From a candidate division WOR-3 bacterium (GTDB taxonomy: Bacteria; Hydrothermota; Tepidihabitantia; Tepidihabitantales; Tepidihabitantaceae), in NCBI GenBank assembly GCA_965648905.1, contig CBFGIT010000005.1, positions 32,001 through 96,000 of the forward strand: a stretch of 64,000 bases of DNA, given 5' to 3'. The first letter of the stretch is position 1. The number at the start of each line of letters is the position of its first letter. Positions 18,001 through 62,501 of the stretch are shown here, piece after piece. The position numbers and the translations under genes were made by a program. A model generated the notes under the pieces. That model did not search any database and was not told where the DNA came from. It saw only the letters and a program-made list of their open reading frames with translations.

Positions 18001-18833
18001 ATCTGCGCACTGGTCCAGGCTCGTCCGCCGTCTGAAGCCCGGACTGCAAACAGGCGGCCGCTGCCCGAGTCTGAGCCAAAGAAGACACGGCCATTGCAGT
18101 AGGTTGCGCCGGAACGGCAGTTGTATCCGTTGAAAGTCGTATTCCGGGACATGCGCCAGACCAGGCTGCCGGCCGGTGTCCACTTGCTCAGGCCGGAGTC
18201 AGAAGAGACCACATAGAGGTCGGCACCGTCGGTCGCGATTGCGCCGCGAATCGGGCCGGATGACACCTGCCAGCGGTAGCGCTGACTGCCGTTCAGCATG
18301 TTTATGCCCACGACATAGCCATCAGCCTGCCCGGCGTACAACGTCGGGATGTTGCCGGTAGTGAGGATGATGGGGTCAGACTCGACCGCAGAAGCGGTGA
18401 TCGCCCGGGACCACTTGGACGTGCCGTTGCTCAGACGCAGACAGCGTACGTTCCAAGTGGACGAGACACCATAGGCCCAGGCAACAACGCTGTCAGCAAA
18501 GATGATCGGCGTGCCAGCTTGCTGGCCAGCCGGGCCGTAGACACTGGACCGCCAGCGTCGGACACCGGTCTGAGCGTTGATGCAATGAACCCGGCCGTCA
18601 CTTGTGGCATAGACAACCGAGCTTTCAGTAGCGACCGGGCTGCCGTTCTCATTACCATTGAACGACGAAAGACCAGGGTCGTAGACCCAGGCAAGCGAAC
18701 ACGGACCCATAGGCACGACCGGGATTTGTCCGGAGTGAACGCTGTCACGGTTGTAGGTCGGCCAGTCAAGGGGCGGGGCTGCCATGACGCTGCCCAGCAT
18801 GACTGCAACTGCCAGTATTATCTTGATTCGCAC
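15072..18833 (-). CDS. Large secreted protein: PQQ/BamB-like beta-propeller, CARDB-like Ig repeats, Kelch-like propeller, T9SS-like C-terminal domain
   Basis: Signal peptide; W-containing propeller repeats; repeats D(V)GC..I..P.G.VDSG..(V/I)TPACS(V/I)(Y/F)NYG; (A/L)KG(N/G)(K/N)T repeats; C-terminus LYPSP...LPAGVYL...QKLVIQH. Confidence 0.85.
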   Translation of the reverse strand: MRIKIILAVAVMLGSVMAAPPLDWPTYNRDSVHSGQIPVVPMGPCSLAWVYDPGLSSFNGNENGSPVATESSVVYATSDGRVHCINAQTGVRRWRSSVYGPAGQQAGTPIIFADSVVAWAYGVSSTWNVRCLRLSNGTSKWSRAITASAVESDPIILTTGNIPTLYAGQADGYVVGINMLNGSQRYRWQVSSGPIRGAIATDGADLYVVSSDSGLSKWTPAGSLVWRMSRNTTFNGYNCRSGATYCNGRVFFGSDSGSGRLFAVRASDGGRAWTSAQIGSMAFGIPSTFDTTLVFVGTQTCSVLAIRQTNGSRAAPGWGRYLQTGGLNRAVSGGLAITTLDSGRVYVSAGYPRGCVFVLDRTTGAIRESIPHPEDTVGMLNSVTRVRNWLYVKDFQERILAYYIDDFVPDRDVGCSFIAAPKGGVDSGTAITPACSVYNYGNTTESYTVRMRIGAGYNNQTNVLAHAPGTSVYVTFPNWIAAAPGKYAVRCSTQLATDMETTNDALSDSVMVYPLHDVGCTRLIVPAGPLDSGTVVTPACSIFNYGIDDPIYTVRMKIEPGYERTALVNGHINKTHVYVTFPQWTATRRGPFTASCSTELYLDGNPANDRAVSAGMVRVHDVGATRIVVPSGWVDSGSTVTPACSVYNYGTEPETYEVRMRIGSGYNTTRTATSHAPGTYLYLTFPNWTANQRGTFPTSCSTELAIDMAPSNDRTVGAVLVRLLDVGVAQITAPGTLVDSGKPVSPRVQLRNYGNVEANLSVRLTVTDTNGILVYDTTESDIVLPGGQSISRTLTKTWQPNVLGRYWLMAYTIMSGDANPANDTARDSCAVVPPLPVGWAEKKSMPSPPSNSPVKDGGWLTFDAGTNLIYAAKGNKQTDFYSYDPGLDTWLILASIPLGTEGKKPGKGAAGCADGSGHVYALKGNNTLGYYRYDAASDSWQQLVDVPLGTTKKKVKGGGGIAYAEREGSGCVFVLKGQKNEFWRWQIPAQGQPDTTTWHPVADAPGTSKWDRGSWLVWDHSGKLYAHKAKYHEFYTYDIARDSWSERLTGMPLLSRSGKSKKSKDGGCAVWFSTGIFALKGGNTSEFWVYSSATDSWGELDPLPELGSSGNKKRVKAGAGLASEGNDIYALKGNKTLELWQYHPSILLAATSKASPAHAGQLAAQTDWLSSSRLRLYPSPARTGRAQLKLGGTSARQASHLVAVAILDASGRVVHRGLYGLGSEIDVILPAGVYLARIDDGSSVIRQKLVIQH

Positions 18834-18960
18834 CAACTCAGCCTCCAATTGTCCGGCGTATCCAAGCTAGAGCTCAACTTCCCCGCCGTTAGGAGGCGAG
18901 CCAAAGTAACCCGTCTGGGTAGTCTGGAGCCGCGCAGTATTCAGTCCGTGCGGCTGGGAT

Positions 18961-19019: not shown

Positions 19020-22373
<3,354 letters not shown>

Positions 22374-31983: not shown

Positions 31984-33333
31984 GTGGAGCAGGAACAGGA
32001 CAGGAGTCCAGTGCCAGAGGTCGCAGACGCGGCCGGCGAAGTGCAGGGCCATAGCGAGAGTGCTGAAGTCAGTGTGCAGCGAGCAGGGGTGCGGGCTCGT
32101 CGGACAGTGTTTGTCGTTGGCATCGGCGTTGCCGTCCTTGCCGTCGGGGTCTTTGTGGCGAGAGCAAAGACCCGGCCCCAGCCCAAGTGCGGGCCGGACT
32201 TGCCTTGTGCTGATTCGAGCTACTTTGCCCAGGACAGCCTGAGCGGCAAGGAGGTGTTCGCATCGGTGCTCTCTCGCTGGGAAGTGCCCGTGTCGCTAAT
32301 CAATCAGGCCTATTCGGCTCTGGCCCGAACCGACTTCAACTTCCGCAACATGAGGCCGGGCGAGCGGGTCACGCTTGAGTACCACGGCCTGGTTCTGGCC
32401 GGCCTTGAGTATCACAAGGACCGGGTCACAAGCTATGCGGTAACCTTTGATTCTTCCGGTGCAACTGCGTCGAAGCGAACCCGACCGGTTGATACAGTCC
32501 GCGCGGTCGTGCGCGGCACGGTTAAGGGGTCGCTCTGGAACTCGCTGGTCGGTCAGGGTGAACTGCCCGAACTGGTGGTGCAGTTTGCCGAGATACTGTC
32601 GTACGAGGTCGACTTCTTCGCCGAGTGCAATGAGGGCGACTCGTTTGAGCTGCTGCTCGACCGGTGCTATGTCGATACTTCGTTCTACCGGAACGGCCGC
32701 ATCTATGCGGTTCACTACCGGGGGCGAACCGGGAACTTCTACGGCTTCTATTTCCGGGCGCCGAACGGGCACTGGGACTACTACAACGAGAAAGGTCAGT
32801 CGCTCAGGAAAACAGTGCTCCGCTCACCGCTCACGTTTGCCAAGGTCACTTCCTACTTCGGCAATCGGTTCCACCCGATACTTCGGACCTATCGTCAGCA
32901 TCATGGGGTTGACTACGGCGCTCCGACCGGCACGCCGGTGTCGGCGATTGCCGATGGTACCGTGACCAAAGCGCAGTGGTCCGGCGGCTACGGTAACCTG
33001 GTTGAAATCCGCCATTCCGGTGGCCTGCTTTCGCGCTACGGACATCTTTCGCGCTATGGGCCGGGCATCCGTGGCGGCCAGCGCGTCCGCCAGGGACAAA
33101 CCGTGGGCTACGTCGGCTCTACCGGGCTCTCGACCGGCCCGCACCTTCACTTCGAAGTGCATCAGGGCGGCAGGGCGGTTAACCCGCTCAAGGTCATCCC
33201 GCCACGGGCCGAACCGGTGGCCAGAAAGGACATGCCTGAATTTGAGCGGCTGCGGGACGAGTACATCAGCCAGTTGCGGAGCCCGGCTGGTCCGATACTG
33301 CCGCAAGCGTCTGATTCGGTCGCAGCGCACTAG
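31984..33333 (+). CDS. M23 family peptidoglycan endopeptidase (MepM-like)
   Basis: N-terminal TM anchor; RFHPIL, HHGVDYGAP, YGHLS, STGPHLHFE. Confidence 0.93.
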   Translation: MEQEQDRSPVPEVADAAGEVQGHSESAEVSVQRAGVRARRTVFVVGIGVAVLAVGVFVARAKTRPQPKCGPDLPCADSSYFAQDSLSGKEVFASVLSRWEVPVSLINQAYSALARTDFNFRNMRPGERVTLEYHGLVLAGLEYHKDRVTSYAVTFDSSGATASKRTRPVDTVRAVVRGTVKGSLWNSLVGQGELPELVVQFAEILSYEVDFFAECNEGDSFELLLDRCYVDTSFYRNGRIYAVHYRGRTGNFYGFYFRAPNGHWDYYNEKGQSLRKTVLRSPLTFAKVTSYFGNRFHPILRTYRQHHGVDYGAPTGTPVSAIADGTVTKAQWSGGYGNLVEIRHSGGLLSRYGHLSRYGPGIRGGQRVRQGQTVGYVGSTGLSTGPHLHFEVHQGGRAVNPLKVIPPRAEPVARKDMPEFERLRDEYISQLRSPAGPILPQASDSVAAH

Positions 33334-35441
33334 AGCCTGAGACCGAGTTCAGCAAACCAGTTGCGGCCCGGGTTTGGATAGCCATGGGCGGTCTCGTATC
33401 GGGTATCAAGCAGGTTGCGGATTCCGGCACCGACGTTGAGCCGCACCCGGCCGAATACGGGCGAGGCCTGCGCGGTCAGGTCGGCCGTGGTGTAAGCAGG
33501 CAGCGAGGCGGTGTTAGCCGGGTCGGTCCACCGCGCACCAGTGTAGTTGACCCGGAGCCCGAAGCGTGGGGCAAGACTAGGCAGAGGCAGTTGATATGAG
33601 CAGTCCAGGCCGGCAGTCAGCCGGGGCCGGTAGGGGAGTTCAATGCTGTCTCCCATGCTGTGGGTCAGGGCAGCATCAAGCTCAAACTCGAAGCCGTGGA
33701 CAGCGTAGTCGAGCTCCAGTTCGGCACCCAGTATTTGAGCACTGGCGACATTCACCGGACTGAATCGGAAGGTGCTGTCCGGCTGCCACTGAATCAGGTC
33801 GTGGAGTCGGCTCGCAAAACCGGCAACCCGGCCTGAAAGACCTGAGACCGGCCGGGCCCTTGCTCCCAGCTCGTACGAGATGCCGGTCTCGGGTCGAAGC
33901 CGCGGGTTGCCATAGGCAAAGGCATCAGTCGGCCAGTACAGGTCGTTGAATCCCGGTGCACGGAACGAACGACCCACGGTTGTATAAAGGTCGACCAGGG
34001 GCAGGCGTGTGTACGTGGCGATTACCTTGGGGCTGAGCACACGATGGGTTGAGTAGCGCAGCGTCGAATCGAGCAAGGTTCCTGTGTTCCGCATCCACTC
34101 GTAGCGCAGCAGGTGGACGACATCAAAGCCGAAAGCCTGAACCCGGAACTGGAAGATTCCGGCAACCGTGTTGCGATGCGGCCAGCCGACCGCAGTGCTG
34201 CTGAGGTTTTCAGTACCGGCTTCTCCGGCCAGCAGGAAATCGGTGTGGCGGGTGGCGTGCCATGACCCGTCAACGGAGATGCCGGCTGTGCTGGTCGCAT
34301 GGGTATCATTGGTTGCCCATGCCGGGTCGCGGTAATTCTGCCATGACCGGGAGAAGCGGCCGCGGGCCGACATCCGCACGAGGTCAGTTGCCTGAAGTGA
34401 GTAGCTGCCGATGAACTGAGCCCGCTGGTCGTCGCGCCGGGCACTGTCTGACGGCCAGTCGGTCGTGCCCGGAGTGCCGCGTCCTGTTGCGCTGAACTCG
34501 CCGAGCAGGTCTGCCTGGTGCGGGCCGAATTCGAACCTGGTCTTGGCCAGAATACTCTTCCGGGTCAGGTCGGCGTTCTGCATCGTGCGCAGGCTGTCGA
34601 GCGAGTCCTGCCAGGCGAAGTCATTGCGGCAGGAATAGAGCTGGCCGGCAATCAGGTAGCCGAAAGGAGAGACCCAGTTTGAATGCCGGAACTCGAGTCG
34701 GCGCAGGCCAAACGAGCCGAGCCCGGCAGTGGCTTCGGCACCGAGCCGTTCAGGTGCCGGGGTGATGAGGTTCACGACCCCTCCGACCGCGCTCGAACCG
34801 AAGACGGCCGAGGCTCCGCCGCGTGCGACTTCAAGTCGTTCGACTGCGACCAAGGGCAAGGTGGACAGGTCGAATGTTCCAAGCTGGGCCGAGTTTTGGG
34901 GTACACCATCGAGTGCCACCAGGGTGTGCTCGGTACTGGCGCCGCGCAGACTGATTGACGTGTAGTTGGCATAGTCGCGTCCCAGCGTAGAAGATACATG
35001 CCGAACCGCGTCAGCCGGATCAGTTCGGCCAACAGACAACTGGTCCCGGTCGAGCAAACGGACTGCGCCGGCGCGGTCCAGAGGCAAAGACGTCCGGGCT
35101 GCGGTAACGGTCACCCGTTCAAGGTTCAGGGTCATCGGCTGCAGGTATACTCTGATTGCCGAGCCGACGTGAACCCGTTGCCGGGCTGGATGATAGCCGA
35201 TGCGGGAAGCGTGGAGGGTCACGGTTTCGGAGTCGATATCGAAGTAGAACGAGCCGGCGCTATCAGTCGAGATGGGCTCGTGGCCTTCGATTTGGACCTG
35301 AGCATAGGGGACAGGCATGCGCGTCTGGTCATCAAGCACCACGCCGCTGAGCGTGGCTCCTTGTGCCGGCAGGCAGGTGACGGCCAGAGCCGTCATCAGG
35401 AGCCGATATCGAATCGGCACGGACTTCGGATTTCGGTTCAC
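33330..35441 (-). CDS. btuB: TonB-dependent receptor, probable cobalamin transporter
   Basis: Plug motif ERLEVARGGASAVFGSSAVGGVVNLIT, SFRAPGFNDLYW, GNP.LRPE, NLLD..Y...GRNW; cobalamin riboswitch upstream. Confidence 0.9.
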   Translation of the reverse strand: MNRNPKSVPIRYRLLMTALAVTCLPAQGATLSGVVLDDQTRMPVPYAQVQIEGHEPISTDSAGSFYFDIDSETVTLHASRIGYHPARQRVHVGSAIRVYLQPMTLNLERVTVTAARTSLPLDRAGAVRLLDRDQLSVGRTDPADAVRHVSSTLGRDYANYTSISLRGASTEHTLVALDGVPQNSAQLGTFDLSTLPLVAVERLEVARGGASAVFGSSAVGGVVNLITPAPERLGAEATAGLGSFGLRRLEFRHSNWVSPFGYLIAGQLYSCRNDFAWQDSLDSLRTMQNADLTRKSILAKTRFEFGPHQADLLGEFSATGRGTPGTTDWPSDSARRDDQRAQFIGSYSLQATDLVRMSARGRFSRSWQNYRDPAWATNDTHATSTAGISVDGSWHATRHTDFLLAGEAGTENLSSTAVGWPHRNTVAGIFQFRVQAFGFDVVHLLRYEWMRNTGTLLDSTLRYSTHRVLSPKVIATYTRLPLVDLYTTVGRSFRAPGFNDLYWPTDAFAYGNPRLRPETGISYELGARARPVSGLSGRVAGFASRLHDLIQWQPDSTFRFSPVNVASAQILGAELELDYAVHGFEFELDAALTHSMGDSIELPYRPRLTAGLDCSYQLPLPSLAPRFGLRVNYTGARWTDPANTASLPAYTTADLTAQASPVFGRVRLNVGAGIRNLLDTRYETAHGYPNPGRNWFAELGLRL

Positions 35442-35487
35442 AGTCGTTCTCCTCTCTTCACAGGTTGAACTGCTGCTTCAGGACTAT

Positions 35488-35640
35488 GGACAGGTCTCCT
35501 GGCTTGCGGCGTCGCTGCTGCCTTCCCGGCTCAAGGCCAGTGGCTTGTTGCAGGACTCCAAGTACCGCTTACAGTGGGTGAGACCGCAGCCGATTCTCAC
35601 GGCTTTCCCTGTGCCGCACAGGCGGCAACCGTTTGTGCCC
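35488..35640 (-). ncRNA. Cobalamin riboswitch
   Basis: Minus strand: AGGGAAAGCCGTGAGAATCGGC...CCACTGTAA...GCCACTGG...CCGGGAAGGC...AGCCAGGAGACCTG (B12 box); promoter TTGACC-16-TATACT at 35714-35687. Confidence 0.93.
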
Positions 35641-36178
35641 AAGGCACCCGGTCTTCCACAGTCCGCTCGCTTTCACTCGCGAACCGAGTATAACGTTAGG
35701 ACGAATCGGGTCAAGCACGAAATCAGAAGGAACGTCGAACCATGCCGGAATCCCTTGACTTACGGGCGCAGGGGGGTAATATTCATAGGTCTGGAATGGC
35801 CGATTAGTCGGACCCAGCTCCAGCGCCATGGGCACCGGGGAAGACTAATGGGTCAGTCTAAGAAGCTACTTCAGTATGGCAGAGCAGACCATGATTACTC
35901 AGTTGGCTGATAGCTCCGGGCTATCGGCCGGGCCTGCTTTGTCTCCCTGCAGCAGGTTTGGGTCATGCGCATCGGGTATCACAAGGAATTCTGGCAGGGG
36001 GAGCTTGACCGAAGCACTCCCGATTTCCGAATCAGTAGGAAGGCGACCGAGGCGTCTAAGGAGGTGCGAGACAGAACGAACGCGGACCGAAGCAACCTTG
36101 AAAACACGTCTAAGCTACAACCCCATATGTGAGAGCCTAATAGCCATCCCGCGGGGTGGATTAAGGAAAGGAGCTTCC

Positions 36179-36901
36179 ATGAAGAGGCTTGTGACTCTAG
36201 CTCTCTTGTTTGCGATTGCAGGGATTGCGCTGGCTGAAGAGCCGAACGCGTGCCACTGGGTCGAAAAGCAGACCTGGTGGTACAAGGACGGTGGCTGGGT
36301 GTCGCAGGGCAGCGGCAGCCCGGGTGCCCGTGCGCGTTGCTGGATGTTTGTAGGTGACTACAAGGACTCCTGCAACAAGCGCGACTGGCAGATTCCGTTC
36401 AAGGCCGAGGCCAGTGTTGCGCAGTGGATCGTCATCGAAATGAACGGTGACGGCTTCCACTGGGGTGTCAGGAAGCCCGGTGACTACGCTAGTGACTGCG
36501 TGTGGCTGAAGTTCCGCAGCAACTACGATGTCCGGGTCAGTTTTTCCGGGTTTGATAATCTGATTTCCAAGACCCCGGATGACTGTATCGACGATACCAT
36601 CGAGGTATGGTACGCCTTCAGCGACGATGCCAACAACCCGCCGCCGTTCGGCGACCCGGCCTGGAAGACGCCGGAAGAGCTGAACCAGTGGGCCATCGAC
36701 GTGAGGGACAGCTACGACCTGCACTGGACCGGCTGGCTGAAGCACATCTGGTGCCGGATTCACGTCAGCCCGTGCAATACCTCGTGTGAGTACGTCGATC
36801 CGAACTGGGCGACAATTAACCTGACGCTCCAGCGCATAAAACCCTGGATCGACCCGGCAACCGGGAACTTCCGCAGCATGCCTCAGTTCCCTTACCAGTA
36901 A
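36179..36901 (+). CDS. Secreted Trp/Cys-rich beta protein, candidate major fibre/surface subunit (240 aa)
   Basis: Strong AAGGAG RBS; Sec signal MKRLVTLALLFAIAGIALA; 17 Trp and 8 Cys counted; first gene of the secretin operon. Confidence 0.85.
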   Translation: MKRLVTLALLFAIAGIALAEEPNACHWVEKQTWWYKDGGWVSQGSGSPGARARCWMFVGDYKDSCNKRDWQIPFKAEASVAQWIVIEMNGDGFHWGVRKPGDYASDCVWLKFRSNYDVRVSFSGFDNLISKTPDDCIDDTIEVWYAFSDDANNPPPFGDPAWKTPEELNQWAIDVRDSYDLHWTGWLKHIWCRIHVSPCNTSCEYVDPNWATINLTLQRIKPWIDPATGNFRSMPQFPYQ

Positions 36902-36910
36902 GGGAACAGG

Positions 36911-38509
36911 ATGAGCATAGCTCCCCCTGCCAGACGGCTATGCTTGTTCATCGGGGCAATCTGGACGTGCGCGCTCGGGTCGCTTTCCGTGACTCCGCAG
37001 CTCACTGAGCTGTCCCTGCCTCAAGGCGCGCGTAAGCGACTCAAGTTCACGGTCGTTAACGAAGACCCGCAGAGTACCCGTACGATTCGCTACTACCCGG
37101 TGTCGTTCTGCCAGAACGAGGAGGGCGCGTACGCTCTTGCACCAGAATCAGTGTCGCCTTATTCCTGCCACGAATGGTTCAGACTCGACACGGTCGAGCT
37201 GATGCTCGGGCCTGGCGAGGGGAAAGAGGTGTTTGTCGAGCTGGTGGTTCCCAGCGGTGCACGCGGAACTCGATTCGGTGCGGTGGCATTCGAGATGCTG
37301 CCTGTTCCCGTGCCCGGTGCGTGGGCATCGGCCGGCCTGGTGATAAGAATGCCCGCGTTCGTCGAGGTCACTATCACCGGCACCCGGGGCAGGAAGAGCA
37401 TCGAAGTGACCGACATCAAAGTTGAACCGGCCCGGGCCGTCCAACGGCAACTGCCGGTCGAAGTGAAGGAAGACGCGCTGGCCGTGGTCGTCTCTGTGCG
37501 TAACACGGGTGAGGTTTCGCTCCCGGTACGGGGCAGGCTGCTGTTTCGAGATGAATATCGGCGTCGGTACCGGGAGCTGCCGCTCGGCGCAGGTGGAGCC
37601 CTGCTGCCCGGGGCGAAGACAAGGCTGATTTCGGTCACGCCCAAGGTCAGACCGGGTAGCTACGTGGTTGAGGCCAACTTGAACATGGGAGGTGTCAGTC
37701 CGGCCAAGGCGAGTGTCCCGGTCGAAATAACGAGCACGACCAGCCGCACGGCCGGAGCCTTGAGCTCGGCCCCGGTTCTGGACTTGGCCGTCAGCACCGA
37801 GAAGATCGAACTGACTGCGCCGGCGCGGTCAACGCGCACGAACTATGTTGTCTTCCGTAATGAGAGCAACAAGGAACAGGTGCTCACGGCCGAGGTGACC
37901 TATCTGGCTTCGGATGGCAGCGGCCGTGTGATTGAGAGCGACAATCCGGGACGTCACGCTGACTGCCGGGACTGGATTACGTTCGAGAAGAACATGGTTC
38001 GCATTGCGCCCCACTCGAGCGAGGCGGTCCGGCTCACAATCAAAGTGCCGGATACGACTCCAGGCGGCAGGTACGCCTGTCTGTATTTCGAAGACTCTGC
38101 TGCCGTTCCCCAAGACAAGAAAGGTCCGCGTGCCTCGGTGTCAATACCGGTGTTCCTGACCGTGACCGGCAACTATCCACGCCGGGTCGAGATTGCTCGG
38201 GTGAACACGAGCAAGACACCGCTCGGCGTCCAGGTGAGCTTGGCAAATACCGGGGCGGTTCACGTCCGCCCTAAGGGCCGGGTTCTTGTCCGGCAGGCGA
38301 TAGTCCCGGGTGCGAGCTCGGACGACAGCTACAAGAGCCTTGGTTCGTTCACGCTCGACGACGACGTGCTGGTGCTACCGGGCGATACTGTCGTACTGGC
38401 CGGGACATATCAGGGCGACGTGCGCAAGGGTCACTACCGGCTGGACGTGAATATCGAGTGCGGGGCGGGATTGAGTCTGTTCAAGTCAGAGGAGGTGATC
38501 GTCAGATGA
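36911..38509 (+). CDS. Periplasmic protein with two tandem PapD/EcpB-like (DUF916/WxL-interacting-like) Ig modules
   Basis: Internal duplication: SCHEWF..L.PGE.KEV...VP / DCRDWI..I.PHS.EAV...VP; V.VRNTG / V.LANTG; LLPG / VLPG; GSY / GHY. Confidence 0.7.
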   Translation: MSIAPPARRLCLFIGAIWTCALGSLSVTPQLTELSLPQGARKRLKFTVVNEDPQSTRTIRYYPVSFCQNEEGAYALAPESVSPYSCHEWFRLDTVELMLGPGEGKEVFVELVVPSGARGTRFGAVAFEMLPVPVPGAWASAGLVIRMPAFVEVTITGTRGRKSIEVTDIKVEPARAVQRQLPVEVKEDALAVVVSVRNTGEVSLPVRGRLLFRDEYRRRYRELPLGAGGALLPGAKTRLISVTPKVRPGSYVVEANLNMGGVSPAKASVPVEITSTTSRTAGALSSAPVLDLAVSTEKIELTAPARSTRTNYVVFRNESNKEQVLTAEVTYLASDGSGRVIESDNPGRHADCRDWITFEKNMVRIAPHSSEAVRLTIKVPDTTPGGRYACLYFEDSAAVPQDKKGPRASVSIPVFLTVTGNYPRRVEIARVNTSKTPLGVQVSLANTGAVHVRPKGRVLVRQAIVPGASSDDSYKSLGSFTLDDDVLVLPGDTVVLAGTYQGDVRKGHYRLDVNIECGAGLSLFKSEEVIVR

Positions 38510-39738
38510 GCCGGACAAGGATTCTGCTGGTGGTACTTTCTGTCTTGTGCGTCGGGGTTCAAGGCCAGCAAGCCGACTCTGAAGCGAAGGTCCGGGCGGC
38601 TGAGGAGCAGCCCTCGGTTACCAACGTCTTCTTTGAGACCGACCTGGTTCAGGCACTGCACGACATCTCGAGCCAGACCCGGATACCGATTGTCACTGAC
38701 GGCAGCGTTGCCGGCATGGTTTCGGTCGAGCTGGTCAATCTGCCGCTTGAGGAGGCGCTGGCCCGGCTGCTTTACCCGCTGGGGTATGCGTTCCGACGCA
38801 TCGAGGACTACTATCTGGTCGGCAACGTCAATCCGGAAAGTCCGTCGTTCTACCTGCTGGCAATTACCGAGGTGCTGCGGCCGAGCTATCTCCGGGCCGA
38901 GGACGCCTACAAACTGCTGCCCGACCAGTACCGGCAGTACCTGAAGGTCAGCCCGGAGACCAACACCCTGGTGGCGGCCGCACCCCGTGGTCTTGTCGAC
39001 AAAATCAAGCAGGACCTTGCCCGGATTGACAAGCCCAAACGGAAGGTGCTGATTGAGGCACTGGTGACGGAGATTTCGACTGAAGCGGCCCGCAGTCTGG
39101 GGATTGACTGGAGCGGGGTGCTGTTCCGGGGTGGCGATACGATTTTGCGGAGCAACGCCGACCTCTCCGGCATTGCCGATACCAGTCTCGGCCTGGTGCT
39201 GAAGCGCGTCACCGGCCGGCTCGGTGACTGGGGCTACGGACTGACGCCCTCAATTCAGGCGCTGGTTCGGGACGGCAAGGCCAAGATCAAGGCCAGCCCG
39301 AAGCTCGTTACCCTTGACGGCCAGGCTGCGGAAATCGTCGTCGGCAAGGAACAGTACTACCAACTGGCGACCGGTGGCGAGCCGTACTACTACCTGCGGC
39401 TGGAGAAGATTGAGGTTGGCGTTTCGATGACTATCACGCCCTACGTTGCCGACAACGGCGACATCACCGTAATGGCCGAGCCGGTGGTGAGCGACGTGGT
39501 CGGTTCAAGCCTGGGGCAGCTTCCGATTGTCAGCAAGCGCAAGGCAAAGACCAGGATTGTGGTCCGGGACGGCGAGAACGTGGTCATCGGCGGGCTGACC
39601 ATGCGCAGCGAGCAGACAATTCAGTCGCGCATCCCGCTGCTCGGCAGCATCCCGATTATCGGGTTCCTGTTCAGCCACACGCGCAAGGTGGTCGAGGACA
39701 ACGAGGTGGTGATTATCATCACCCCGCGTCTGCTCTAG
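38506..39738 (+). CDS. Secretin (STN/N0, N3 and secretin domains)
   Basis: VLIEALVTEI, LGIDW, ASPKLVTLDGQAAEIVVG, VRDGENVVIGGL, IPLLGSIPIIGFLF, VIIITPRLL; GGAGG RBS. Confidence 0.95.
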   Translation: MSRTRILLVVLSVLCVGVQGQQADSEAKVRAAEEQPSVTNVFFETDLVQALHDISSQTRIPIVTDGSVAGMVSVELVNLPLEEALARLLYPLGYAFRRIEDYYLVGNVNPESPSFYLLAITEVLRPSYLRAEDAYKLLPDQYRQYLKVSPETNTLVAAAPRGLVDKIKQDLARIDKPKRKVLIEALVTEISTEAARSLGIDWSGVLFRGGDTILRSNADLSGIADTSLGLVLKRVTGRLGDWGYGLTPSIQALVRDGKAKIKASPKLVTLDGQAAEIVVGKEQYYQLATGGEPYYYLRLEKIEVGVSMTITPYVADNGDITVMAEPVVSDVVGSSLGQLPIVSKRKAKTRIVVRDGENVVIGGLTMRSEQTIQSRIPLLGSIPIIGFLFSHTRKVVEDNEVVIIITPRLL

Positions 39739-39778
39739 ACCGGATTACAGCATGGACACTGGCGGTGAGTCTGGGACA

Positions 39779-40408
39779 ATGACCTCTCGGTTCGCGTTTC
39801 TCATATTGGTCGTGGGTCTGCTGGCCTCCGAGGCATGCGCCCAGTCCAACACGCTCGTTGACCGACTCGGGGTTCAGACGATGACCTATTTCAAGCTCGG
39901 TACGTTCTGCCCGTGCGGCACGGCATTGAAAGAGGAGTTCGGGACCCGGGTGCCAATCGGCCTCGAGGCCCGGGCCGGCACGAAGTACGGCTTTGGTGCT
40001 GGTCTCTCGGTCGGGGTCTGGTGGGCTACCGCGGGCAAAGACATATCGACCTTCGTGCCGGTTGCGCTGGCCGGACACTACTCCCGGCCTCTGTTGGACG
40101 GCGCGGTCGTACCGTTTGGCGGGCTGTTCCTCGCCTACAACTCGGCTCAGCTCTACTTTGCGGCAGGCGATACGTTTGTTCGCGCCCGAGGCGCGGGTAT
40201 GACCGGCGGGCTGTTGCTCGGGGTTGAGGCGCCGTTCGTGGACAAGTTCAACCTGCTGGCTGACTGCCGGTTCGGGTTTGGCCGAGGCGCAATGGAGTTC
40301 GATAGACCGGTCGGCGAGATTCCGGCCGGAACAAGCAATGTCACGTTCTCCAACACCAGCCTGAACCTGGGCATCAGCCTTGGTTTCTCAGACATCTGTC
40401 TGTGGTAG
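39779..40408 (+). CDS. Small outer-membrane beta-barrel protein
   Basis: Signal peptide; alternating amphipathic strands ([28 protein letters not shown]); aromatic C-terminal residue. Confidence 0.7.
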
Positions 40409-40422
40409 GTGACGGCTGCGCT

Positions 40423-40986
40423 GTGTCCGGCCAGAGTCAGAGCTTGACCTGGCACTCGACGACGATCATCGGGGTGCGACGTTCAGGCCGGGTTGCGATG
40501 GCGTCAGACGGACAGGTGACGCTGGGTGAGACCGTGGTCAAGCAGTCGGCCCGCAAAATCCGCAGTCTGCGCGATGGTAGGGTTCTGGCTGGTTTTGCGG
40601 GCGCCAGTGCTGATGCTTTCACTCTGCTGGAGCGGTTTGAAGCCAAGCTCGACGAGCACCCGGGTAACATTGCCCGAGCTGTGGTCGAGCTGGCCAAAGA
40701 CTGGCGTACGGACCGGGTGCTCAGGCGTCTGGAAGCGATGCTCGGAATCATGGACCGCGAGAAGTCGTACGTTGTCTCCGGTTCGGGCGACGTTATCGAG
40801 CCGGATGACGGCATCGTCGCCATCGGCTCGGGCGGTGCCTATGCGCTGGTCGCTGCGCGCTGTCTGCTCGAACACACCAGTCTACCGGCAGACAAGGTAG
40901 CCCGCGCCGCGATTGAGGCTGCGGCTGCGGTCTGCGTCTATACCAACCGCGAAATCACGGTTCAGACAATTCCGGCGCGCGGCTGA
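40423..40986 (+). CDS. hslV: ATP-dependent protease peptidase subunit HslV/ClpQ
   Basis: [50 protein letters not shown]. Confidence 0.96.
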
Positions 40987-54704: not shown

Positions 54705-57700
54705 CTACTCCTCCTCGAACTCGTGGGTGTCGAACTTCAATGTCCGGCAGTTTTCGGTGACGATGCGGACGGTCTTTTCCGGCACACCGTCAGGCACGGT
54801 GGCGCTGATTTCGAGGGTTACTTCTACGTCCGCACCATCGAGCGTCGTGATGTGCTGGAGCACTTCCTGGGCAATCTGGCCCGCATCTCGGGCCATCCTG
54901 GTCGGGTCAAGGCTGACTGTGGCGTGGAACCGCTTCGGCCTGGCCGCTGCCTTGGGCGGCTCTGGTTCGTCCGTTCCGCGACCAGTGCCCGGAGTCTGGC
55001 CGGTGCTGGTTCCAGTCACAGTGGTTTCGCCCCGCCTCCTTGCATCCTCGTCCAACTGTGCCTGCGCGATGTCCGGCTTGACCACGACGCTTGACTCGCT
55101 CGCAATCACCCGGCAGCGCGTACCTGCGGCCAATCCTGAGTACCGCTTTGTCCTTTCGTCCCAGTTCTGCGCGTAGGCGAACGTGTCAGTTTTCCAGGTG
55201 AGCTGGGACACGCCGTCGGCGATAGCTTCGAGCAGAACCTCAGAATCACGCAGCCGGGGCAGATACAGATATCTGGCAAAGTCTTCGGCCAACTGCCGGA
55301 CACTCACATGATTCCCCCGCCACAGCGGGATGCGGTCAAGTTCGATGCGCAGGCGCGTGCCGCCCATTTCAGTGAGCATGGCCTCGTCCCGGACAAGTCG
55401 TTTCGAAGCCCGGGGCCCAAGAGAGTCCTGCGCCTGCAGTCGGACTTCCTGCCATTCTACCGGGTCCTTTGGGTCTTGCTGGGTCGGCACGAGCAGCCAT
55501 TGGTAAGTTTCGGGCAACCGTACTTTGACCGTTTCCCGCGCCCGTTCGAGCTTGGTCTCGACCTGGCGCAACTGGAACTGGTCGAGGTTCAACTCCTCGC
55601 GGTCACGACTGATTGACTCCCATGCCATGACCTGCCTGACTGCTGTCTCAAGGTCCTGAAGCTTGACCGCGTCCGGCGCGAGGAAGACGAGCGTGTTCTT
55701 GTATTCGCGCGGGCCGTTGCCGCACTTGTCGAGGATGGCCGCAGCCTCCTTGCGGGCCGGGCTGTCCTTGACCTTGGTTGAATGGGTGTATGCCGGGCCG
55801 AGGATGACCAGGCGGCAGCCTTCTTCGTCCGGCACGTCGGCGCTTGAGACGCAGGCGTGTACCCGGACGAACTCGCCCCGATGCCGTGCGTCAGTCTTGA
55901 GCAGTTTCTCGATTTCGGCGTGGACGTCTTCTTGTTTCTGCTGTCCGGCCCGGTCCTCAGCCAGACGCGCGACCGTGGGCTGCAGCGAGTACCAATGGCG
56001 GCTGCCGTCGACATAGAGATACGTCGCCCGGTCGGTCAGACGCCGGAGCGCGTCGCCAAAGATTGCGGGGCTTTCGCCCGGCTGGGCACAGCCGAGCCTG
56101 ATACGCCGGTCGTCGATGCCCTTGTTCGGGGCCTGCGTCAGCGGTGCTGTGCCCAGAAAGATGGTCCGGGCAACGCGGCGGCAGGCCGAGTAGCGACCGA
56201 GGTCCGTGTTCTCGCCGTCGAGAGCAAGCGGTTGCGAGTGCGTGCCGTCGACGTCGTTGTCGATGACCGCGTCCCATTGCTGCTCCAGATAGCGGGTCAG
56301 CTCTGACTTCACGACCGGGTCATCGATCGGAGCCGTGGCGGGCATGATGAGCAGGTTCGGGTCGTGCCTTTCCCAGAGTGTGTGGATAACCGAAGCCATC
56401 AGGCGCAGGACTCCGCGGGTGCACTGGAACCGGTCGAGCGTGGACCAGTCGTTGTACAGCCGGTTGAACAACTCCGGGTGTATCGGATAGGCTGCAATAA
56501 TATCCCGCTCATAGGCTGCTTCGCGGCAGTAGGACGGAAACTCCTGAGGCTGGGCCCGGTACATCTCGGAGAAGGCGCGGGCGACCGCATCGCGCATCAC
56601 AGCCTGGTCCCGGCCGGTAATCGGCTGGAACAGCCGGCGCCGAACAATCTCGAACCCTTCTACCTGACTGGCAGGATGCCACGGCTCTTCGACCCGCTGG
56701 AGCGCGTGCTGCAGGCTGTCGATTGCCCGGCGTCCCTGGTCCCCGCCGATTTCGTTCTCTGAAGCAGGCACGCTGACCACAAGCATTGTCTTGTCCACGA
56801 CCTTGGCTGCTTCGCTCAATGCCTGGGCAAAGGTAAACTGTACGTCAAATGTACCAGCGGGCAGGTCGGCGTCGTCGTGCAACTGCCGGGCATAGGCAAT
56901 CCACTCGTCAATCAGGATGAGGCAGGGCGCGTACCTGGCAAAGAGCTTGTGCAGGGCATCGCCGGGATTGGTGGCGGTCTTGTCCGCATCAGCGACGAGC
57001 TTGTACCCCTCCTTGCCGCCCAGTTGCCAGGCAATTTCGCCCCAGAGCGTGCGGACGATGGTCCCGTCTGGTTTCTCGTGCTTCTTGCCCGGCGCAATCT
57101 TCGTGCCGACGATGACTGCCCGCTTCACGTTCTTCGGCAGGGTCAGGCCTGCTTCACTCAGGACTGCATCGATTCCGGGCAACTGCGACGCGGCCACGCC
57201 GGAGAACAGGTGATACAGAGCCAGTAAGGAGTGGGTCTTGCCGCCGCCGAAGTTGGTCTTGAGACGGACAACCGGGATGCCGGTGCCGCCGCTCAGCCGC
57301 CTGACCGCGGGCAGAAGCAGGCCGGTCAGGCCCTGAGTCAGGAACGTCCGGCGGAAGAACTCGGTCGGGTCCTGATATTCGGCCGACGCCTGATTCTGAT
57401 AGACCTGCCAAAGGTCGGCAGCAAACTCGGCCTTCTGGTAGTTGCCCGAGGCAACATCCGGGTGCGGGGTGACGACCTCGCGCCACGGCTTCAGGCCGGC
57501 CAAAGGCGTACCACTGATAGCCATCTCCGTCTGGCGCCGCGTTGCGCTCCGGCGCTGTTCGTCGAACTTCACCCGCAGCACTTCATCGCGCTGTTTCTCC
57601 ACTTCGGCGGCCTGCTCGGCGGAAACTGCCTGCAGCAGCCGGGCAATGCTGTCGAGCGCGCGATAGGTATCGTCGTAAGAGAAGGTGTCCTGGTGCGCCC

Positions 57701-57989
57701 ACTTGATTCTCACTTCACGCAACTCGCTCACCAGCGAGCGCTCGGCATGGCCGAGCACCCGCTTGAACACCTTGTTCCAATGGTCCCACATCACAGCCAG
57801 CAAGGCCTGGGCGTCCCACTTTACGCCCCGGTCTTTTTTCGGATACTGGTCCTCGTGCAGGGAGTCCTTTGCGAACTCGACCCACGAATCACCCAGCACT
57901 GACCTCATCTCGCGCTCGACAAACGGCGCAAGCCCTGCGACAAGCAAGTCCAGGGCTGCGCCGACTCGCTGCTGATTAGTCAAAGCCAT
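54705..57989 (-). CDS. DUF499 AAA+ ATPase with N-terminal Swt1-like HEPN domain
   Basis: VRIKWAH (Rx4H), PWREVVTPHPDV, EFAADL, TNFGGGKTH, LILIDEW, YPIHPELF, FQCTRGVLRLMA. Confidence 0.92.
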   Translation of the reverse strand: MALTNQQRVGAALDLLVAGLAPFVEREMRSVLGDSWVEFAKDSLHEDQYPKKDRGVKWDAQALLAVMWDHWNKVFKRVLGHAERSLVSELREVRIKWAHQDTFSYDDTYRALDSIARLLQAVSAEQAAEVEKQRDEVLRVKFDEQRRSATRRQTEMAISGTPLAGLKPWREVVTPHPDVASGNYQKAEFAADLWQVYQNQASAEYQDPTEFFRRTFLTQGLTGLLLPAVRRLSGGTGIPVVRLKTNFGGGKTHSLLALYHLFSGVAASQLPGIDAVLSEAGLTLPKNVKRAVIVGTKIAPGKKHEKPDGTIVRTLWGEIAWQLGGKEGYKLVADADKTATNPGDALHKLFARYAPCLILIDEWIAYARQLHDDADLPAGTFDVQFTFAQALSEAAKVVDKTMLVVSVPASENEIGGDQGRRAIDSLQHALQRVEEPWHPASQVEGFEIVRRRLFQPITGRDQAVMRDAVARAFSEMYRAQPQEFPSYCREAAYERDIIAAYPIHPELFNRLYNDWSTLDRFQCTRGVLRLMASVIHTLWERHDPNLLIMPATAPIDDPVVKSELTRYLEQQWDAVIDNDVDGTHSQPLALDGENTDLGRYSACRRVARTIFLGTAPLTQAPNKGIDDRRIRLGCAQPGESPAIFGDALRRLTDRATYLYVDGSRHWYSLQPTVARLAEDRAGQQKQEDVHAEIEKLLKTDARHRGEFVRVHACVSSADVPDEEGCRLVILGPAYTHSTKVKDSPARKEAAAILDKCGNGPREYKNTLVFLAPDAVKLQDLETAVRQVMAWESISRDREELNLDQFQLRQVETKLERARETVKVRLPETYQWLLVPTQQDPKDPVEWQEVRLQAQDSLGPRASKRLVRDEAMLTEMGGTRLRIELDRIPLWRGNHVSVRQLAEDFARYLYLPRLRDSEVLLEAIADGVSQLTWKTDTFAYAQNWDERTKRYSGLAAGTRCRVIASESSVVVKPDIAQAQLDEDARRRGETTVTGTSTGQTPGTGRGTDEPEPPKAAARPKRFHATVSLDPTRMARDAGQIAQEVLQHITTLDGADVEVTLEISATVPDGVPEKTVRIVTENCRTLKFDTHEFEEE

Positions 57990-57992
57990 AGA

Positions 57993-60881
57993 TTACTCCT
58001 CTCCGAACAGCCTGCCGGTCTCAGCTCGCCGGCTCGACTGGGCCAGCTCCAATATCTCAGGCCAGGCGATGACAAGGCTATTGTATGCCAACGCCTCTTT
58101 GGCCCACTGCTTTCGCTCGCAGATAGAATACAGCCGGTAAGCCAGCGCCCGCGCTTCCTCGCTCTTGCCCGCGCCCAGTTTGGCTACCAGCGCGGCCGCG
58201 GCCTGCCTGCCACCCTGCTCCAACGCCCGAATCAACTGCTGGGTGCACTCCCAGACAGTCAGACGCTTATCCTGAACAGGGTCCCAGTCCTCGGGCAACT
58301 CATCGCGCTCGAGCAGTCGCACTTTGCCCGCCTTGGCGACAAGGACTCCGGCCTCTGCCAGCCCGTTCACCGCGGTATTCATCGCCCGGGCCAGCACGTC
58401 GGCCTGACCAAACTCGCCTTCGTCCATTCCATGCTGGCCGAACCACGCAACGCAGAACCGTGTGTCCCTATCCAGCTCGCCCTCCTGCTCGGCAAGATAG
58501 GCATCAAGCTCCTGATTGATTATCTGCAAAGCGGTGCGCACCGACATCGGCCCGCCATCAGCCTCAACCACCTTTGAATACCGCGAGAACACGGCCATCC
58601 CCGGCCCGATTGCGGCCTGCGCGAAGTCCACGGGCGCGACATTCCCCTGCTGCAGCTTGGCCAGGGCGTCCGGCAGTTCCTTCTTCAGCCTTGCGCCAAA
58701 CTCCTTCCGCGTGGCAATCGGCGCATCTGAAGGACGACGACGGCAGACAAGGACGATGCTGGACGCAAGTGCATTGGAGTTCTTCCCGACAAGACGGCGG
58801 TCTAGCTCAGTCCGCGTCGGCCATGTGCCGGTCACTGCGAAGCCAGCCTGCTTTGCAGCATCGAGAAACGCGTCCCATCCTGTACTGGCAACGCCCTCAT
58901 CGCCTTCGCTCTCAGACTGCTTAAACGCGTAGTAGATTGTAACCGGGAACGCGGGATGCGCCTGTTCGGCCAGACGGTGCATCGCCTCGGTCATTCCATC
59001 GAGAAAGAACGCCTCCGCCTTGTCCTTACTCCCGTGGCGGTAGGGCGTGGCGACGAGTTCTTCCGCCTTGGGCACGGCGAGGGTGGCGAACAAGTCAGGA
59101 AACACCGGCTGTAGCGAACGCCGCAGCCAGACGTAGAAGAAGTCGGACAGGTCGGCGTAACCTATGTTGTCAAAGTACGGCGGGTCGGTTGAGACTACCC
59201 TGAAGTTCTGTGGAACGTACGACTGTGCGACAGCCTGCGCCGCGTGACCGGCCCAGGTGGACTCTGTTCCCTGAAGCCCGGTGGCGATCGACGTGATGCC
59301 TCCATCAAAGTTGCCACTTGAGTCCGAAAGTGCATTTGTCTCAGCGAAATCCCAAACCATGGGTATGGCCTGTCTGCCGAAGGTATTGCGAGCGTGTTCC
59401 CTCAAGGTAGCCCACGCGCAGATTGTGGAGTTGCGGTCTGCGAGCTTGTCTACCGCAAGTGCAAGATACACCGCGACCGCGTCGGCGTAGGCGGTTGCGC
59501 CGGTTCCGCCGTCGCGCAAGGGGACGCCGTCATCGGGCAGGCCGGCGATTACTGCGTCGCGCTTCGCCATCTCGCGTGCTTCCTGCACCAAATCCGAAAA
59601 CGTCGTCAGGGCAACAAGCTGGCGGGGCGTGAAGAGGTCGGCGAAAGTCTCCATGCCGTAGAGCGGCATCTGATCGCGAGCCTTGCCGTGCAGTGGTGCC
59701 TCCGGCTTCCACGCCGGCTGAGCACTGTGCGGCGCAGCCTCGTGCTCAGGCGTTGGCGGCAGGTACACTCGTCCACGATTGCCTTCGGCTACGATGGCCA
59801 TCAGCCGCGCTCCCATACGCCCGGCTCTGCCTTCGGCTTTGATGTAGTCGCCTGCAATCACTGAACCCGACATCAAGCAGCGGAAGTTGGCGCCGCGCGC
59901 GAGTTTGGTCCCATTCTTCGCCGCCTCGGCGTCTTTGGGTCTGCCGACCTTCACCGTGAAGCGGTAGCCGTTGCCTTCTATCACCGGCTCGACGTAGGCT
60001 TCTTTGCCTTCTCTGGTCGAGAGCATGAAGGTCGAGACAAGTGGTACGTCTATGTTCCTGAAAGCGGGATTGGGACTCTTGACCGTGCGTGCCCAGAGCC
60101 AGGCGATGACCGTGAGTTCCTTGCCAACATATTGCTTCAGATCAGGCCGGTCTTTGGCCATTTCGGCCGTGACCTTTACCTTTGGGTAGAGATGACCGAT
60201 TCGCTTCTCGGCCTCGTCCCGCATCCACTGGCCGTAGTAGCGCACGTCTTCGGCAAGGCCCTGCGCTCCGCGCCAGGTAGACGTGATGTGCGCCCGGCGT
60301 GCCTCAGGGTTCACCGGCGGTCTGCCTGCGAACCTGGGCGGGATTTCGATCATCGCCTTACAGATAAGCACCGCGACTGGGTTTAAGTCGCTGGCATAGG
60401 CTTCAAGTCCGAGCCGCTGCGCCTCAAGCGGCAGGGCACCGCCGCCGGCAAAGGGGTCGTGGAAGGCGGGAAGTTTGTCCGGGTTGAAGAGCTCCTTTGC
60501 CCGCAGATGGTTGGCGTTCTCGGCACAGGTGCGACGCCAGCTTTGCCTGATTTCCTCTCGCGCCCGCTCCAGCACGGTCTCATTGGTGGTGTTCTCCCAC
60601 AGCACGAGGTCCTCTATGATGCGGAAGAGCCGCTCGCGTTCTTTCTCCTGTGCCTTTTCGGTCGGGAACAGGTCAGGCCAGGCCGAAGGGTCGTCCACCA
60701 TCTGCGCAAATATCACGGCCCGCGCCGCAGCCAGTGGACGGCGTGCCCACCAGAGATGGAGCGTGCTTGGGTGTCCGTGGCGAATGGACTTTTCTCGCGC
60801 TGAGGCCTCGTTGATTGCCTCAAGCGGCAGGGCGACTTCGATGAGCTTCTTGCGGTATGGCAGGGTAGGGTTATCGCTCAT
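57993..60881 (-). CDS. DUF1156 DNA adenine methyltransferase
   Basis: [31 protein letters not shown] (SAM binding), TDPPY (catalytic). Confidence 0.93.
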
Positions 60882-60884
60882 GGC

Positions 60885-62498
60885 TCAGGGCCTCCATTTC
60901 GGATGAGTTCTGAGTGCTGGCTTGGTCGCGCCGCGCTTGGCCGGTTTGTGTTGGGTTTGGCCCATTTGTGGCCCATTTCGCGGAACTGACGGACGAGCCA
61001 TTTGAGCCATTTGTGAGCCATTTCCTGGATTGTGTCCGGCAGAGCCATTTGAGCCATTCTTGAGTCGTTTCTTCGGAACACGGTAGGCGGAACCGCGTCC
61101 GGCTCCGACCGGCTCCAGCAACCCCTTGTTCACCAAATCCTCTAGGTCACGCTTGGCCGTTGGCCGGCTCGTATCTGCCGCCTCCTGGTATCGGGCGTTG
61201 GTCAATCTGCCCTCGGTCTTGGCCACCGCGATCCCTTTCATCTGGCGTTCGTTCAGCCCGGCGGCTTCAAGCACTTCGGTGGTCAGCCAGTCACGCCACA
61301 TGGTCTGGATGAACTGGCCGCCGTCTTGTCTGAAGTCGGGCTCAGGCAGTTCGGCTTTGCGGCAGAGGTCAATCATGTCGAGGATGCCGGTGCCCGCTTT
61401 CTCGATGTAGCGGACGAGATAGAGCGGGTCGGCAATCAGCGGGTTGCGGGGAATCGAGGCATGAGGCTTGCGCAGGAGCTCGGGCGTGAGCGCGGGCGGC
61501 AGTTCACCGGGATTCCAGACTTCGAGCCGGTCAGCAAAGAGCATCACCTGGACACTGGCATTCGAGCTGTAGTCGCGGTGCGCGACCGCGTTCACGATGG
61601 CCTCAGCCACGGCGTCGCGCGGCAGTTCGTAGGTGACCGGGGCCTGCGGTCCGGCTGCGCGCGTGCCGACCGTGCGGGTAATCCTGGACATCACGAAGTC
61701 GACCGCCTGGTCAACCAGCTCGAACACGTCACCCCGGTACACCTGGTAGGACGGAATCGGTTTGCGGACCTCGGTCCCGTGGAAGTGCAGGCATTTTACC
61801 TCTGACGTAATCAGGAATCGCTGGGGCTGCCTGCTGAAGAGGAGCACCGCGGCGCGGGTCGGCCGGTCTCCGTCGAGCAGGTTCATGTGAGCCAAAGCGT
61901 CCGGCAGCGGCGTCCCCGGTCCGAGTGGATATCCGCGGGCGCGCTGCGCCCGCGCCAGGAATCCGGCGACCTTTTCCTCAGCGATGTCCTCCAGCGACGC
62001 ATCCGGACAGGCGGTGGCGTCAAACGGCCGCTGGCTGATTGCTCCCTGCTCCAGCAGGTACGTGACAAGGCTGGCGTAGACCAGTCGGTTCAGGTCGGCA
62101 GTGCCGACAAACCTGCGTCGGACAAGTTGCTGCTCGGCCTTGCGGATGAGCTGGAGCATCTTCGGCTCACGCACCGAGTCATCAGACCCCTTCACGTAGA
62201 CGAGTCGGCACTTGCCCTGCTCGGTTGCCCGGTCAAATTCGCGCTCGGTCGCGGACAGCCCGTCTTCGCCTGCGGCTCCGTACTCATTGCCGAACAGGCC
62301 GAGGTACACGTCGCACCGGTCCACCTCAGTCAGGTACACCGCGCGCGCCACGCGGCTCCCGGCCGGCTGCTCCTCGAACAGAAACAGGTCGAAGAAGCGG
62401 CCGAGCAGCGGGTCACCACGCAGGTAACCAGCCAGCGCCTCACGTTCGGGCTTCATCTCTTTCTGGACGTTGCTGACGAAAATGCGCAGTCTCTTCAT
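60885..62498 (-). CDS. DUF4062 + ATP-binding (RecG-C/HATPase_c_4) + wHTH accessory protein
   Basis: IFVSNVQKE...ER, SATEREFD, EAIVNAVAHRDY, NPG, PRNPLIA, IEKAGTG, TAKRDLEDLV. Confidence 0.85.
   Translation of the reverse strand: MKRLRIFVSNVQKEMKPEREALAGYLRGDPLLGRFFDLFLFEEQPAGSRVARAVYLTEVDRCDVYLGLFGNEYGAAGEDGLSATEREFDRATEQGKCRLVYVKGSDDSVREPKMLQLIRKAEQQLVRRRFVGTADLNRLVYASLVTYLLEQGAISQRPFDATACPDASLEDIAEEKVAGFLARAQRARGYPLGPGTPLPDALAHMNLLDGDRPTRAAVLLFSRQPQRFLITSEVKCLHFHGTEVRKPIPSYQVYRGDVFELVDQAVDFVMSRITRTVGTRAAGPQAPVTYELPRDAVAEAIVNAVAHRDYSSNASVQVMLFADRLEVWNPGELPPALTPELLRKPHASIPRNPLIADPLYLVRYIEKAGTGILDMIDLCRKAELPEPDFRQDGGQFIQTMWRDWLTTEVLEAAGLNERQMKGIAVAKTEGRLTNARYQEAADTSRPTAKRDLEDLVNKGLLEPVGAGRGSAYRVPKKRLKNGSNGSAGHNPGNGSQMAQMARPSVPRNGPQMGQTQHKPAKRGATKPALRTHPKWRP
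60959..61070 (-). repeat. AAATGG(CTC/GCC) short repeats in the 3' end of the DUF4062 gene
   Basis: Plus strand: GAGCCATT x5 (60995, 61004, 61015, 61042, 61051) and GGCCCATTT x2 (60959, 60970). Confidence 0.8.
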
Positions 62499-62501
62499 CG
62501 G

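Follow-up and report, generated by a model that had tools for sequence, protein, structure and literature searches.

A conserved cassette of a pilin-like subunit, a double chaperone and a secretin in candidate division WOR-3, Zixibacteria and Thermotogota

The window analysed here is a 64,000-nucleotide stretch of a candidate division WOR-3 genome (assembly GCA_965648905.1, contig CBFGIT010000005.1, positions 32,001 to 96,000 of the forward strand), and positions given below without a locus number refer to it. It contains a cassette of four genes, here called A to D. A sequence-only reading had described four close-set plus-strand genes, and the open reading frames lie where it placed them. 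Gene A (36179–36901), directly preceded by AAGGAG, encodes a putatively exported subunit of 240 amino acid residues. Gene B (36911–38509) encodes a predicted soluble double chaperone of 532 residues, and gene C (38506–39738), which overlaps B by 4 nucleotides, encodes a short secretin of 410 residues. Gene D (39779–40408, alternative start 39752) encodes a small outer-membrane β-barrel-like protein, probably accessory; from an alignment, the start at 39779 is preferred. The signal peptides of the window’s proteins were assessed by eye. A homologue 98% identical to B carries the name candidate division WOR-3.

Secretins and the parts of chaperone-usher systems belong to separate machine families. 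Secretins that pass proteins are paired with a motor, and an usher is required for the donor-strand pili of double-membraned bacteria. Both rules are challenged by a conserved unit that joins a secretin to a pilus chaperone, and A, B and C are such a three-gene unit, conserved across WOR-3, Zixibacteria and Thermotogota. They apparently form an undescribed machine, though its folds are familiar. The direct results are predicted folds, gene linkage, co-occurrence and absent partners, and we infer the function from them.

The core sample comprised 61 genomes of the window’s WOR-3 order. A is present in 16 of these, B in those 16 with one further match of half length, and a C-type secretin again in the same 16, at E 1e-126 or better, with every other match at 1e-50 or worse. 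The secretin profile held nine of the 16 secretins; the other seven lay outside it. Presence of the cassette varies jointly within three genera (one of four, four of six and one of two genomes). In 14 of the 16, B and C lie next to each other; one of the 14 has A on another contig end. The possibility that the homologues do not co-occur with secretins, raised with the original reading, is thus answered by a single secretin type that occurs in the same 16 genomes. One could still suppose that C is an orphan PilQ paralogue beside unrelated exported proteins, since it is unlinked in two of the 16 genomes. However, the same secretin type is present even in those two, searches of the 45 genomes without A did not find it, and the gene order is conserved over three phyla. 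The co-occurrence test largely refutes such a chance neighbourhood, which we consider barely credible.

Outside the order, A was found in 11 of 201 genomes of the phylum sample with a narrower profile, and in 16 of 151 genomes of the phylum of the Zixibacteria record. The order A′-A-B-C holds in all 12 Zixibacteria regions and in the named record, two having a gene between the subunits; none of the 12 regions had contributed to the B and C profiles. Similar neighbourhoods in Thermotogae had been guessed at, and A-family genes do occur in 30 of 118 Thermotogota genomes and a B-family gene in 73 of 118. Of the 30 best Thermotogota B hits, 29 have a secretin no more than 1.5 kb away, and the remaining one ends at a contig edge. 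Twenty weaker B hits, chosen by hand, comprise 18 double chaperones and two single modules without a secretin. Sixteen of these 18 divergent double chaperones have a secretin domain nearby, one has a secretin cut by a contig end and one has none. A single-module homologue on a Deinococcus plasmid is also without a secretin. The small exported proteins beside divergent cassettes are distant A relatives (hhalign probability 96, E 2e-9). Subunit genes number one to four in tandem, some with longer N-termini, resembling major and minor pilins. In several genomes of Thermotogota there is also a second cassette, which is divergent and has a different pilin family (L182, L183, L234, L241, L244). At L252, L253 and L254, single-module chaperones lie among small exported proteins and before proteins of 739–1058 residues, possibly a sister system with a divergent usher-like protein. 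Locus L046, labelled Latescibacterota, was not counted as an additional phylum, since a locus with the same genes was found within the window’s order.

Mature A has 17 tryptophans and eight cysteines in 221 residues. The sequence-only reading’s Trp/Cys-rich exported subunit behind a strong ribosome-binding site is borne out for the window; its description as disulfide-rich does not extend to the family, because cysteine number ranges from 0 to 16 across 149 homologues. The best-conserved cysteine is Cys65 (83% of homologues). The family comprises 323 clusters at 50% identity, with subunits also in Bacillota (P0036, P0186, P0209). Sequence searches give A no name. No Pfam or NCBIfam family matches it, and no Pfam family is common to more than one of the 149 homologues; nothing among Protein Data Bank sequences falls below E 0.3, plasmid sequences give no match, and the nearest ESM Atlas clusters are unnamed. 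The WxL domain (PF13731) is found in 0 of the 149 homologues, the sole Atlas lead to WxL being weak (0.87). A loose class III prepilin motif is present in just 2 of 148.

The AlphaFold2 model of mature A has a mean predicted local distance difference test (pLDDT) score of 95.6. Searched against 48,161 representative chains, its best fold match is the Csu pilin CsuA/B (Z 8.2, root-mean-square deviation (rmsd) 2.9, 114 residues aligned), followed by CsuE, the FimH pilin domain, CS17, CS20, CfaE/CfaB, Hyper2, CupE, FimF, PapG, TLP-1b and CanA. The top Foldseek row is CfaB (E 8e-4). The top structural rows are nearly all donor-strand pilins, and the nearest solved folds are all extracellular fibres. 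With Z itself modest, it is this uniformity of the hits on which the pilin call is based.

The pilin-type immunoglobulin (Ig) fold is predicted to span residues about 81–218, and the match stops at the last strand of the pilins. An N-terminal β module and a conserved C-terminal tail are extras that classical pilins do not have. Residues 39–64 of mature A lack secondary structure in the monomer though they are confidently placed (pLDDT >90), and where alignments to FimF, FimG and CanA take in the N-terminal extension of these pilins, they begin at model residues 44–52. From hydrophobic alternation and the model, we propose that W70–V80 is a donor strand. Large hydrophobic residues occupy positions 70, 72, 74 and 80 in 67%, 82%, 95% and 95% of homologues, respectively, and the residues between are mostly not of this kind. 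A is therefore predicted to fold like a chaperone-usher pilin whose N-terminal strand is left unpaired; the incomplete Ig fold and N-terminal donor strand anticipated for the 36179 product appear in the predicted model.

The two halves of B are homologous and represent a tandem duplication (hhalign probability 99.9, E 1e-36, 229 columns). Its model (pLDDT 88.2) best matches an enterococcal WxLIP protein (Z 16.9, rmsd 6.8, 228 aligned). Next, at Z 11.7–12.7, come YadV, CupB2, CsuC (12.0), CfaA, FimC and EcpB (11.7), in rows that cover either half. The top Foldseek rows are long tandem-Ig ciliary proteins at rmsd of at least 19, which appear because Ig domains repeat. In the window’s B, WxLIP_PGBD (PF06030) falls below the cut-off (22 bits vs 27.3); weak matches to it occur in 22 of 32 B homologues and PF11797 in 1 of 32. 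PapD_N gave no hit in the 32. A membrane anchor is not apparent, as 0 of the 32 have a hydrophobic C-terminal 19-mer and no 19-mer exceeds 1.6. The models thus suggest that B is a soluble chain of two WxLIP/PapD-like two-domain modules. The two tandem PapD/EcpB-like modules first described are confirmed insofar as both halves are chaperone-like and match pilus chaperones; the closest fold is WxLIP, ahead of the PapD, CsuC and EcpB types. At L120:10755-12379, the double chaperone gene is split over two overlapping frames. The subunit gene at L118 and at L125 comes after a gene for a single-module chaperone, and in L125 a double chaperone and a secretin then follow.

C consists of STN, one Secretin_N and a Secretin domain that extends to the very C-terminus (PF00263, over the Pfam cut-off, E 1e-40), and it scores under all nine NCBIfam secretin cut-offs. 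Its periplasmic part is very short. C ends at its domain, as the description of a short secretin without an S-domain had it. The missing S-domain is not distinctive, because the PilQ-type secretins of these genomes likewise end 2–5 residues after the Secretin domain. The window’s genome, which is 99.6% complete, has three secretins. From their translations, the one on contig C20 accompanies PilM-like, PilT-like and prepilin genes, that on contig C6 lies in a Tad-like cluster, and C is the third. Quick trees, from which five incomplete rows including this genome’s Tad secretin were left out, group C with other WOR-3 cassette secretins (support 99–100) and place the genome’s PilQ-type secretin apart, among 13 WOR-3 rows (support 100). 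C therefore does not clade with the genome’s PilQ; such a grouping, together with an unconserved neighbourhood, had been named as an outcome that would refute the idea. In one Zixibacteria record, the cassette secretin (L042:12356-14668) carries a long extra N-terminal region that weakly matches a FadL-type barrel.

Partners of the known secretin machines are missing from the cassette, as the sequence-only reading had noted for its operon. Seven type IV/Tad components of this genome were searched for in 81 cassette loci (1,147 kb, E 1e-5), some of them from one and the same genome, and pilus ATPase, platform, alignment and peptidase genes gave 0 hits. A prepilin motif was found once in these loci, vs four in the control cluster. 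The usher profile (PF00577), which very divergent ushers could escape, found none in the window’s genome and none over the cut-off in 118 Thermotogota genomes.

Each known family has a defining feature that the cassette lacks: the usher, the WxL pilin and membrane anchor, or the motor and prepilin. The archaic Csu system (CsuA/B, CsuC) and the alternate CFA/I system (CfaB, CfaA) share with it a pilin-type Ig subunit with an N-terminal extension, a soluble chaperone of two-domain fold in the periplasm, several subunit genes in tandem and the lack of an ATPase. In contrast, no usher was found with the cassette, a secretin stands in its place, and the chaperone is doubled; A is also larger than the Csu and CFA/I pilins (221 vs about 145 residues) and has no sequence match to pilin families. 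The Elr/WxL pilus of Enterococcus resembles the cassette in its WxLIP-type chaperone fold and in usher-less, chaperone-guided donor-strand exchange, which is proposed for the cassette (10.64898/2026.10.17.759780). It differs in that ElrE is a single, membrane-anchored module (DUF916-DUF3324), the pilins carry WxL domains, and anchoring is by sortase (10.64898/2026.10.17.759780). Its authors report Elr from Bacillota only, and the text mentions secretin 0 times (10.64898/2026.10.17.759780). The Pam pili of candidate phyla radiation bacteria are likewise usher-less donor-strand pili with PapD/FimC-like chaperones, but they have two separate membrane-anchored chaperones (PamC/D) and two-domain pilins, and their hosts have no outer membrane and no trans-envelope machinery (PMC13278184). 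The environmental fibrils TLP-1a/b are donor-strand fibrils of unknown origin with a protomer of 236–237 residues (PMC11494351); their Z to A is 6.6–6.9, no better than for other pilins, and they have no sequence match to the A profile. PilQ and GspD secretins have the Secretin domain with STN and Secretin_N, as C does. Unlike type IV and type II secretins, C is not linked to genes for an ATPase, a platform, an alignment protein or a prepilin peptidase and coexists with a separate PilQ, and A differs from type IV filament subunits in its Ig-like fold and in the rarity of the prepilin motif. In the accessible text of a 2026 review, secretins come up in connection with type IV, Tad and type II systems and no others (PMC13721041). 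A Thermotoga genome paper gives, in the part available, two to three secretins for each strain and names every one of them a pilQ competence gene (PMC5637354). No secretin-chaperone-pilin system was found described in the literature searched, which covered few subscription papers.

We think it fairly probable that the cassette builds a chaperone-guided donor-strand pilus that leaves the cell through the secretin. A would be exported by Sec as an incomplete Ig fold. In the periplasm, B would complete the fold by lending a strand and, because it has two chaperone modules, could bind a pair of subunits simultaneously. One A would then use its N-terminal strand to displace the chaperone strand in the other A, a hand-over that belongs to the usher in classical pili. 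By analogy with chaperone-usher pili, the fibre would grow through C driven by the energy of subunit folding, not by ATP. That doubled chaperones are linked with secretins and three single ones are without suggests, from few contrasts, that the second module of B replaces the usher’s hand-over site. We lean, by a small degree, toward the more specific proposal that, at least in WOR-3, Zixibacteria and Thermotogota, a motor-free secretin replaces the usher and the fused double chaperone does donor-strand exchange. Folds, linkage and absent partners all support the hybrid pathway put forward by the sequence-only reading; the fibre and its passage through C we infer, as we do A–B binding, polymerisation, the energy source and the two-site role of B.

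A number of points count against this proposal. The opening of a secretin gate without a motor has no explanation. The top Z of A is close to the 7–8 that, by the tool’s own note, unrelated sandwiches reach. The same secretin type stands apart from A-B in two of the 16 WOR-3 genomes, an unrelated gene comes after B in three metagenome loci, and the double chaperone at L238 has no secretin within about 5 kb. At L092, a prepilin-like gene lies about 6 kb from the cassette on the other strand. Because the genomes are related to one another, their counts cannot be treated as independent. A single origin of the chaperone-linked secretins is neither shown nor rejected: in a tree of 30 of the 45 chaperone-linked and 13 of the 18 other rows, a branch separates all 30 from the 13, at a support of just 80. 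Finally, T2SSE-family ATPases occur elsewhere in all 61 genomes of the WOR-3 sample, so that a motor in trans is possible.

Secretins that export proteins work with a motor. C could be a dedicated secretin with a shared one, the type IV pilus ATPase and platform of the cell pushing folded A in trans, with or without B, through C for polymerisation outside, in the manner of type II secretion. The window’s genome has PilB, PilT, PilC, PilM and prepilins, and the window itself contains a stand-alone MshEN-PilB/GspE ATPase gene (8566–10254, plus strand), behind a sensor kinase and two response regulators and with no adjoining pilus genes. However, alignment and platform genes do not accompany the cassette, and the periplasmic part of C offers little length. 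No extra ATPase copy tracks the cassette either, because T2SSE matches number just two in each of three cassette genomes and four or more in several cassette-free ones. We regard a shared motor as unlikely. The stand-alone ATPase was rejected as a dedicated partner, since a second ATPase of such size is present in many genomes of the order, cassette or not.

A structure other than a pilus has also been weighed, namely a short periplasmic strut, plug or surface lattice of A and B at the secretin, for example an outer-envelope tether. The parts of A that classical pilins lack would suit it, as would the Thermotogota cassettes, which add a second, degenerate secretin-like gene, and the periplasm-spanning tubes seen in T. 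maritima (PMC10160955), assigned there by appearance to type IV pili or type II secretion systems. Nevertheless, patchy presence within genera is more in keeping with an accessory adhesin than with a core part of the envelope, the variable paralogues with longer N-termini suggest tips, and the solved folds nearest to A come from extracellular fibres; we judge such a structure to be distinctly unlikely. A table of T. maritima envelope proteomics in the same paper gave only TM_1112 in a look by locus-tag prefix and is uninformative on expression (PMC10160955).

Secretins can act outside protein secretion, as in slime export (PMC12475490). C might then be an uptake or polymer-export channel for a solute or polysaccharide, with A and B as binding or scaffold proteins, and in the window’s family the cassette is divergent from a TonB-dependent receptor gene with a cobalamin riboswitch. 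But that neighbour is specific to the family, no transporter or glycosyltransferase recurs among the neighbours read or scanned, and the folds of A and B are those of pilin and chaperone. We find such a channel very improbable.

A donor-strand pilus leaving through C would constitute an undescribed route of surface-fibre building in little-studied double-membraned bacteria, and the cassette, with its three genes, is a minimal system in which to study the opening of a secretin gate. Thermotogae were reported as the sole diderm clade without any modelled secretion system, with unrecognised ones suggested (Abby et al. 2016, PMC4793230, in its accessible portion). The cassette is a concrete candidate for one, and if the motor-free proposal is true, it gives a protein-export route to a phylum reported without all standard secretion systems. 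The cassette is open to experiment, since family members occur in named records of cultured type: Pseudothermotoga sp. U03pept has the whole cassette and Geochorda subterranea the subunit alone.

D resembles 8-strand outer-membrane barrels (ESM Atlas 0.97, OMP_b-brl PF13505 clusters) and has no Pfam hit. It follows C in all seven cassette genomes of the window’s family and gave no hit in the other loci scanned. The fourth gene described as a small outer-membrane β-barrel is therefore upheld in its likeness, as an extra seen only in this family. Thermotogota cassettes end in a gene with a degenerate secretin-like region (hhalign probability 92) or extra STN domains; D was considered as a homologue of it and rejected, as the two are not homologous.

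Upstream, A has a leader of about 400 nucleotides, reaching to 36178 and ending in the strong ribosome-binding site. A candidate sigma-70 promoter lies at 35755–35783 on the plus strand; its consensus match of 9/12 is weak alone, and it aligns in two close relatives. An Rfam scan of the leader found no family near threshold, and a cyclic-di-GMP-type leader was not found, at Rfam thresholds, upstream of the window’s cassette or in eight related loci. The TonB-dependent receptor gene (33330–35441, minus strand), which as a cassette neighbour is specific to the window’s family, follows a cobalamin riboswitch at 35472–35648 (minus strand); the same riboswitch is also upstream in L026, L027 and L140. 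Downstream of D lies hslV (40402–40986, same strand); in two close relatives, L104 and L143, D has no hslV after it. BTAD (SARP-type) activators are repeatedly found next to Thermotogota cassettes (e.g., L092:5496-6545 and L237:1538-2569), and AraC-type genes lie upstream of the subunits in two WOR-3 families.

Elsewhere in the window, 15072–18848 and 19020–22373 (both minus strand) encode large Kelch/β-propeller proteins with Por_Secre_tail C-terminal domains of the type IX secretion system type. A defence-island-like cluster at 54705–63905 (minus strand) encodes HEPN_Swt1-DUF499, DUF1156 methylase-like, DUF4062-HATPase and NOV_C proteins.

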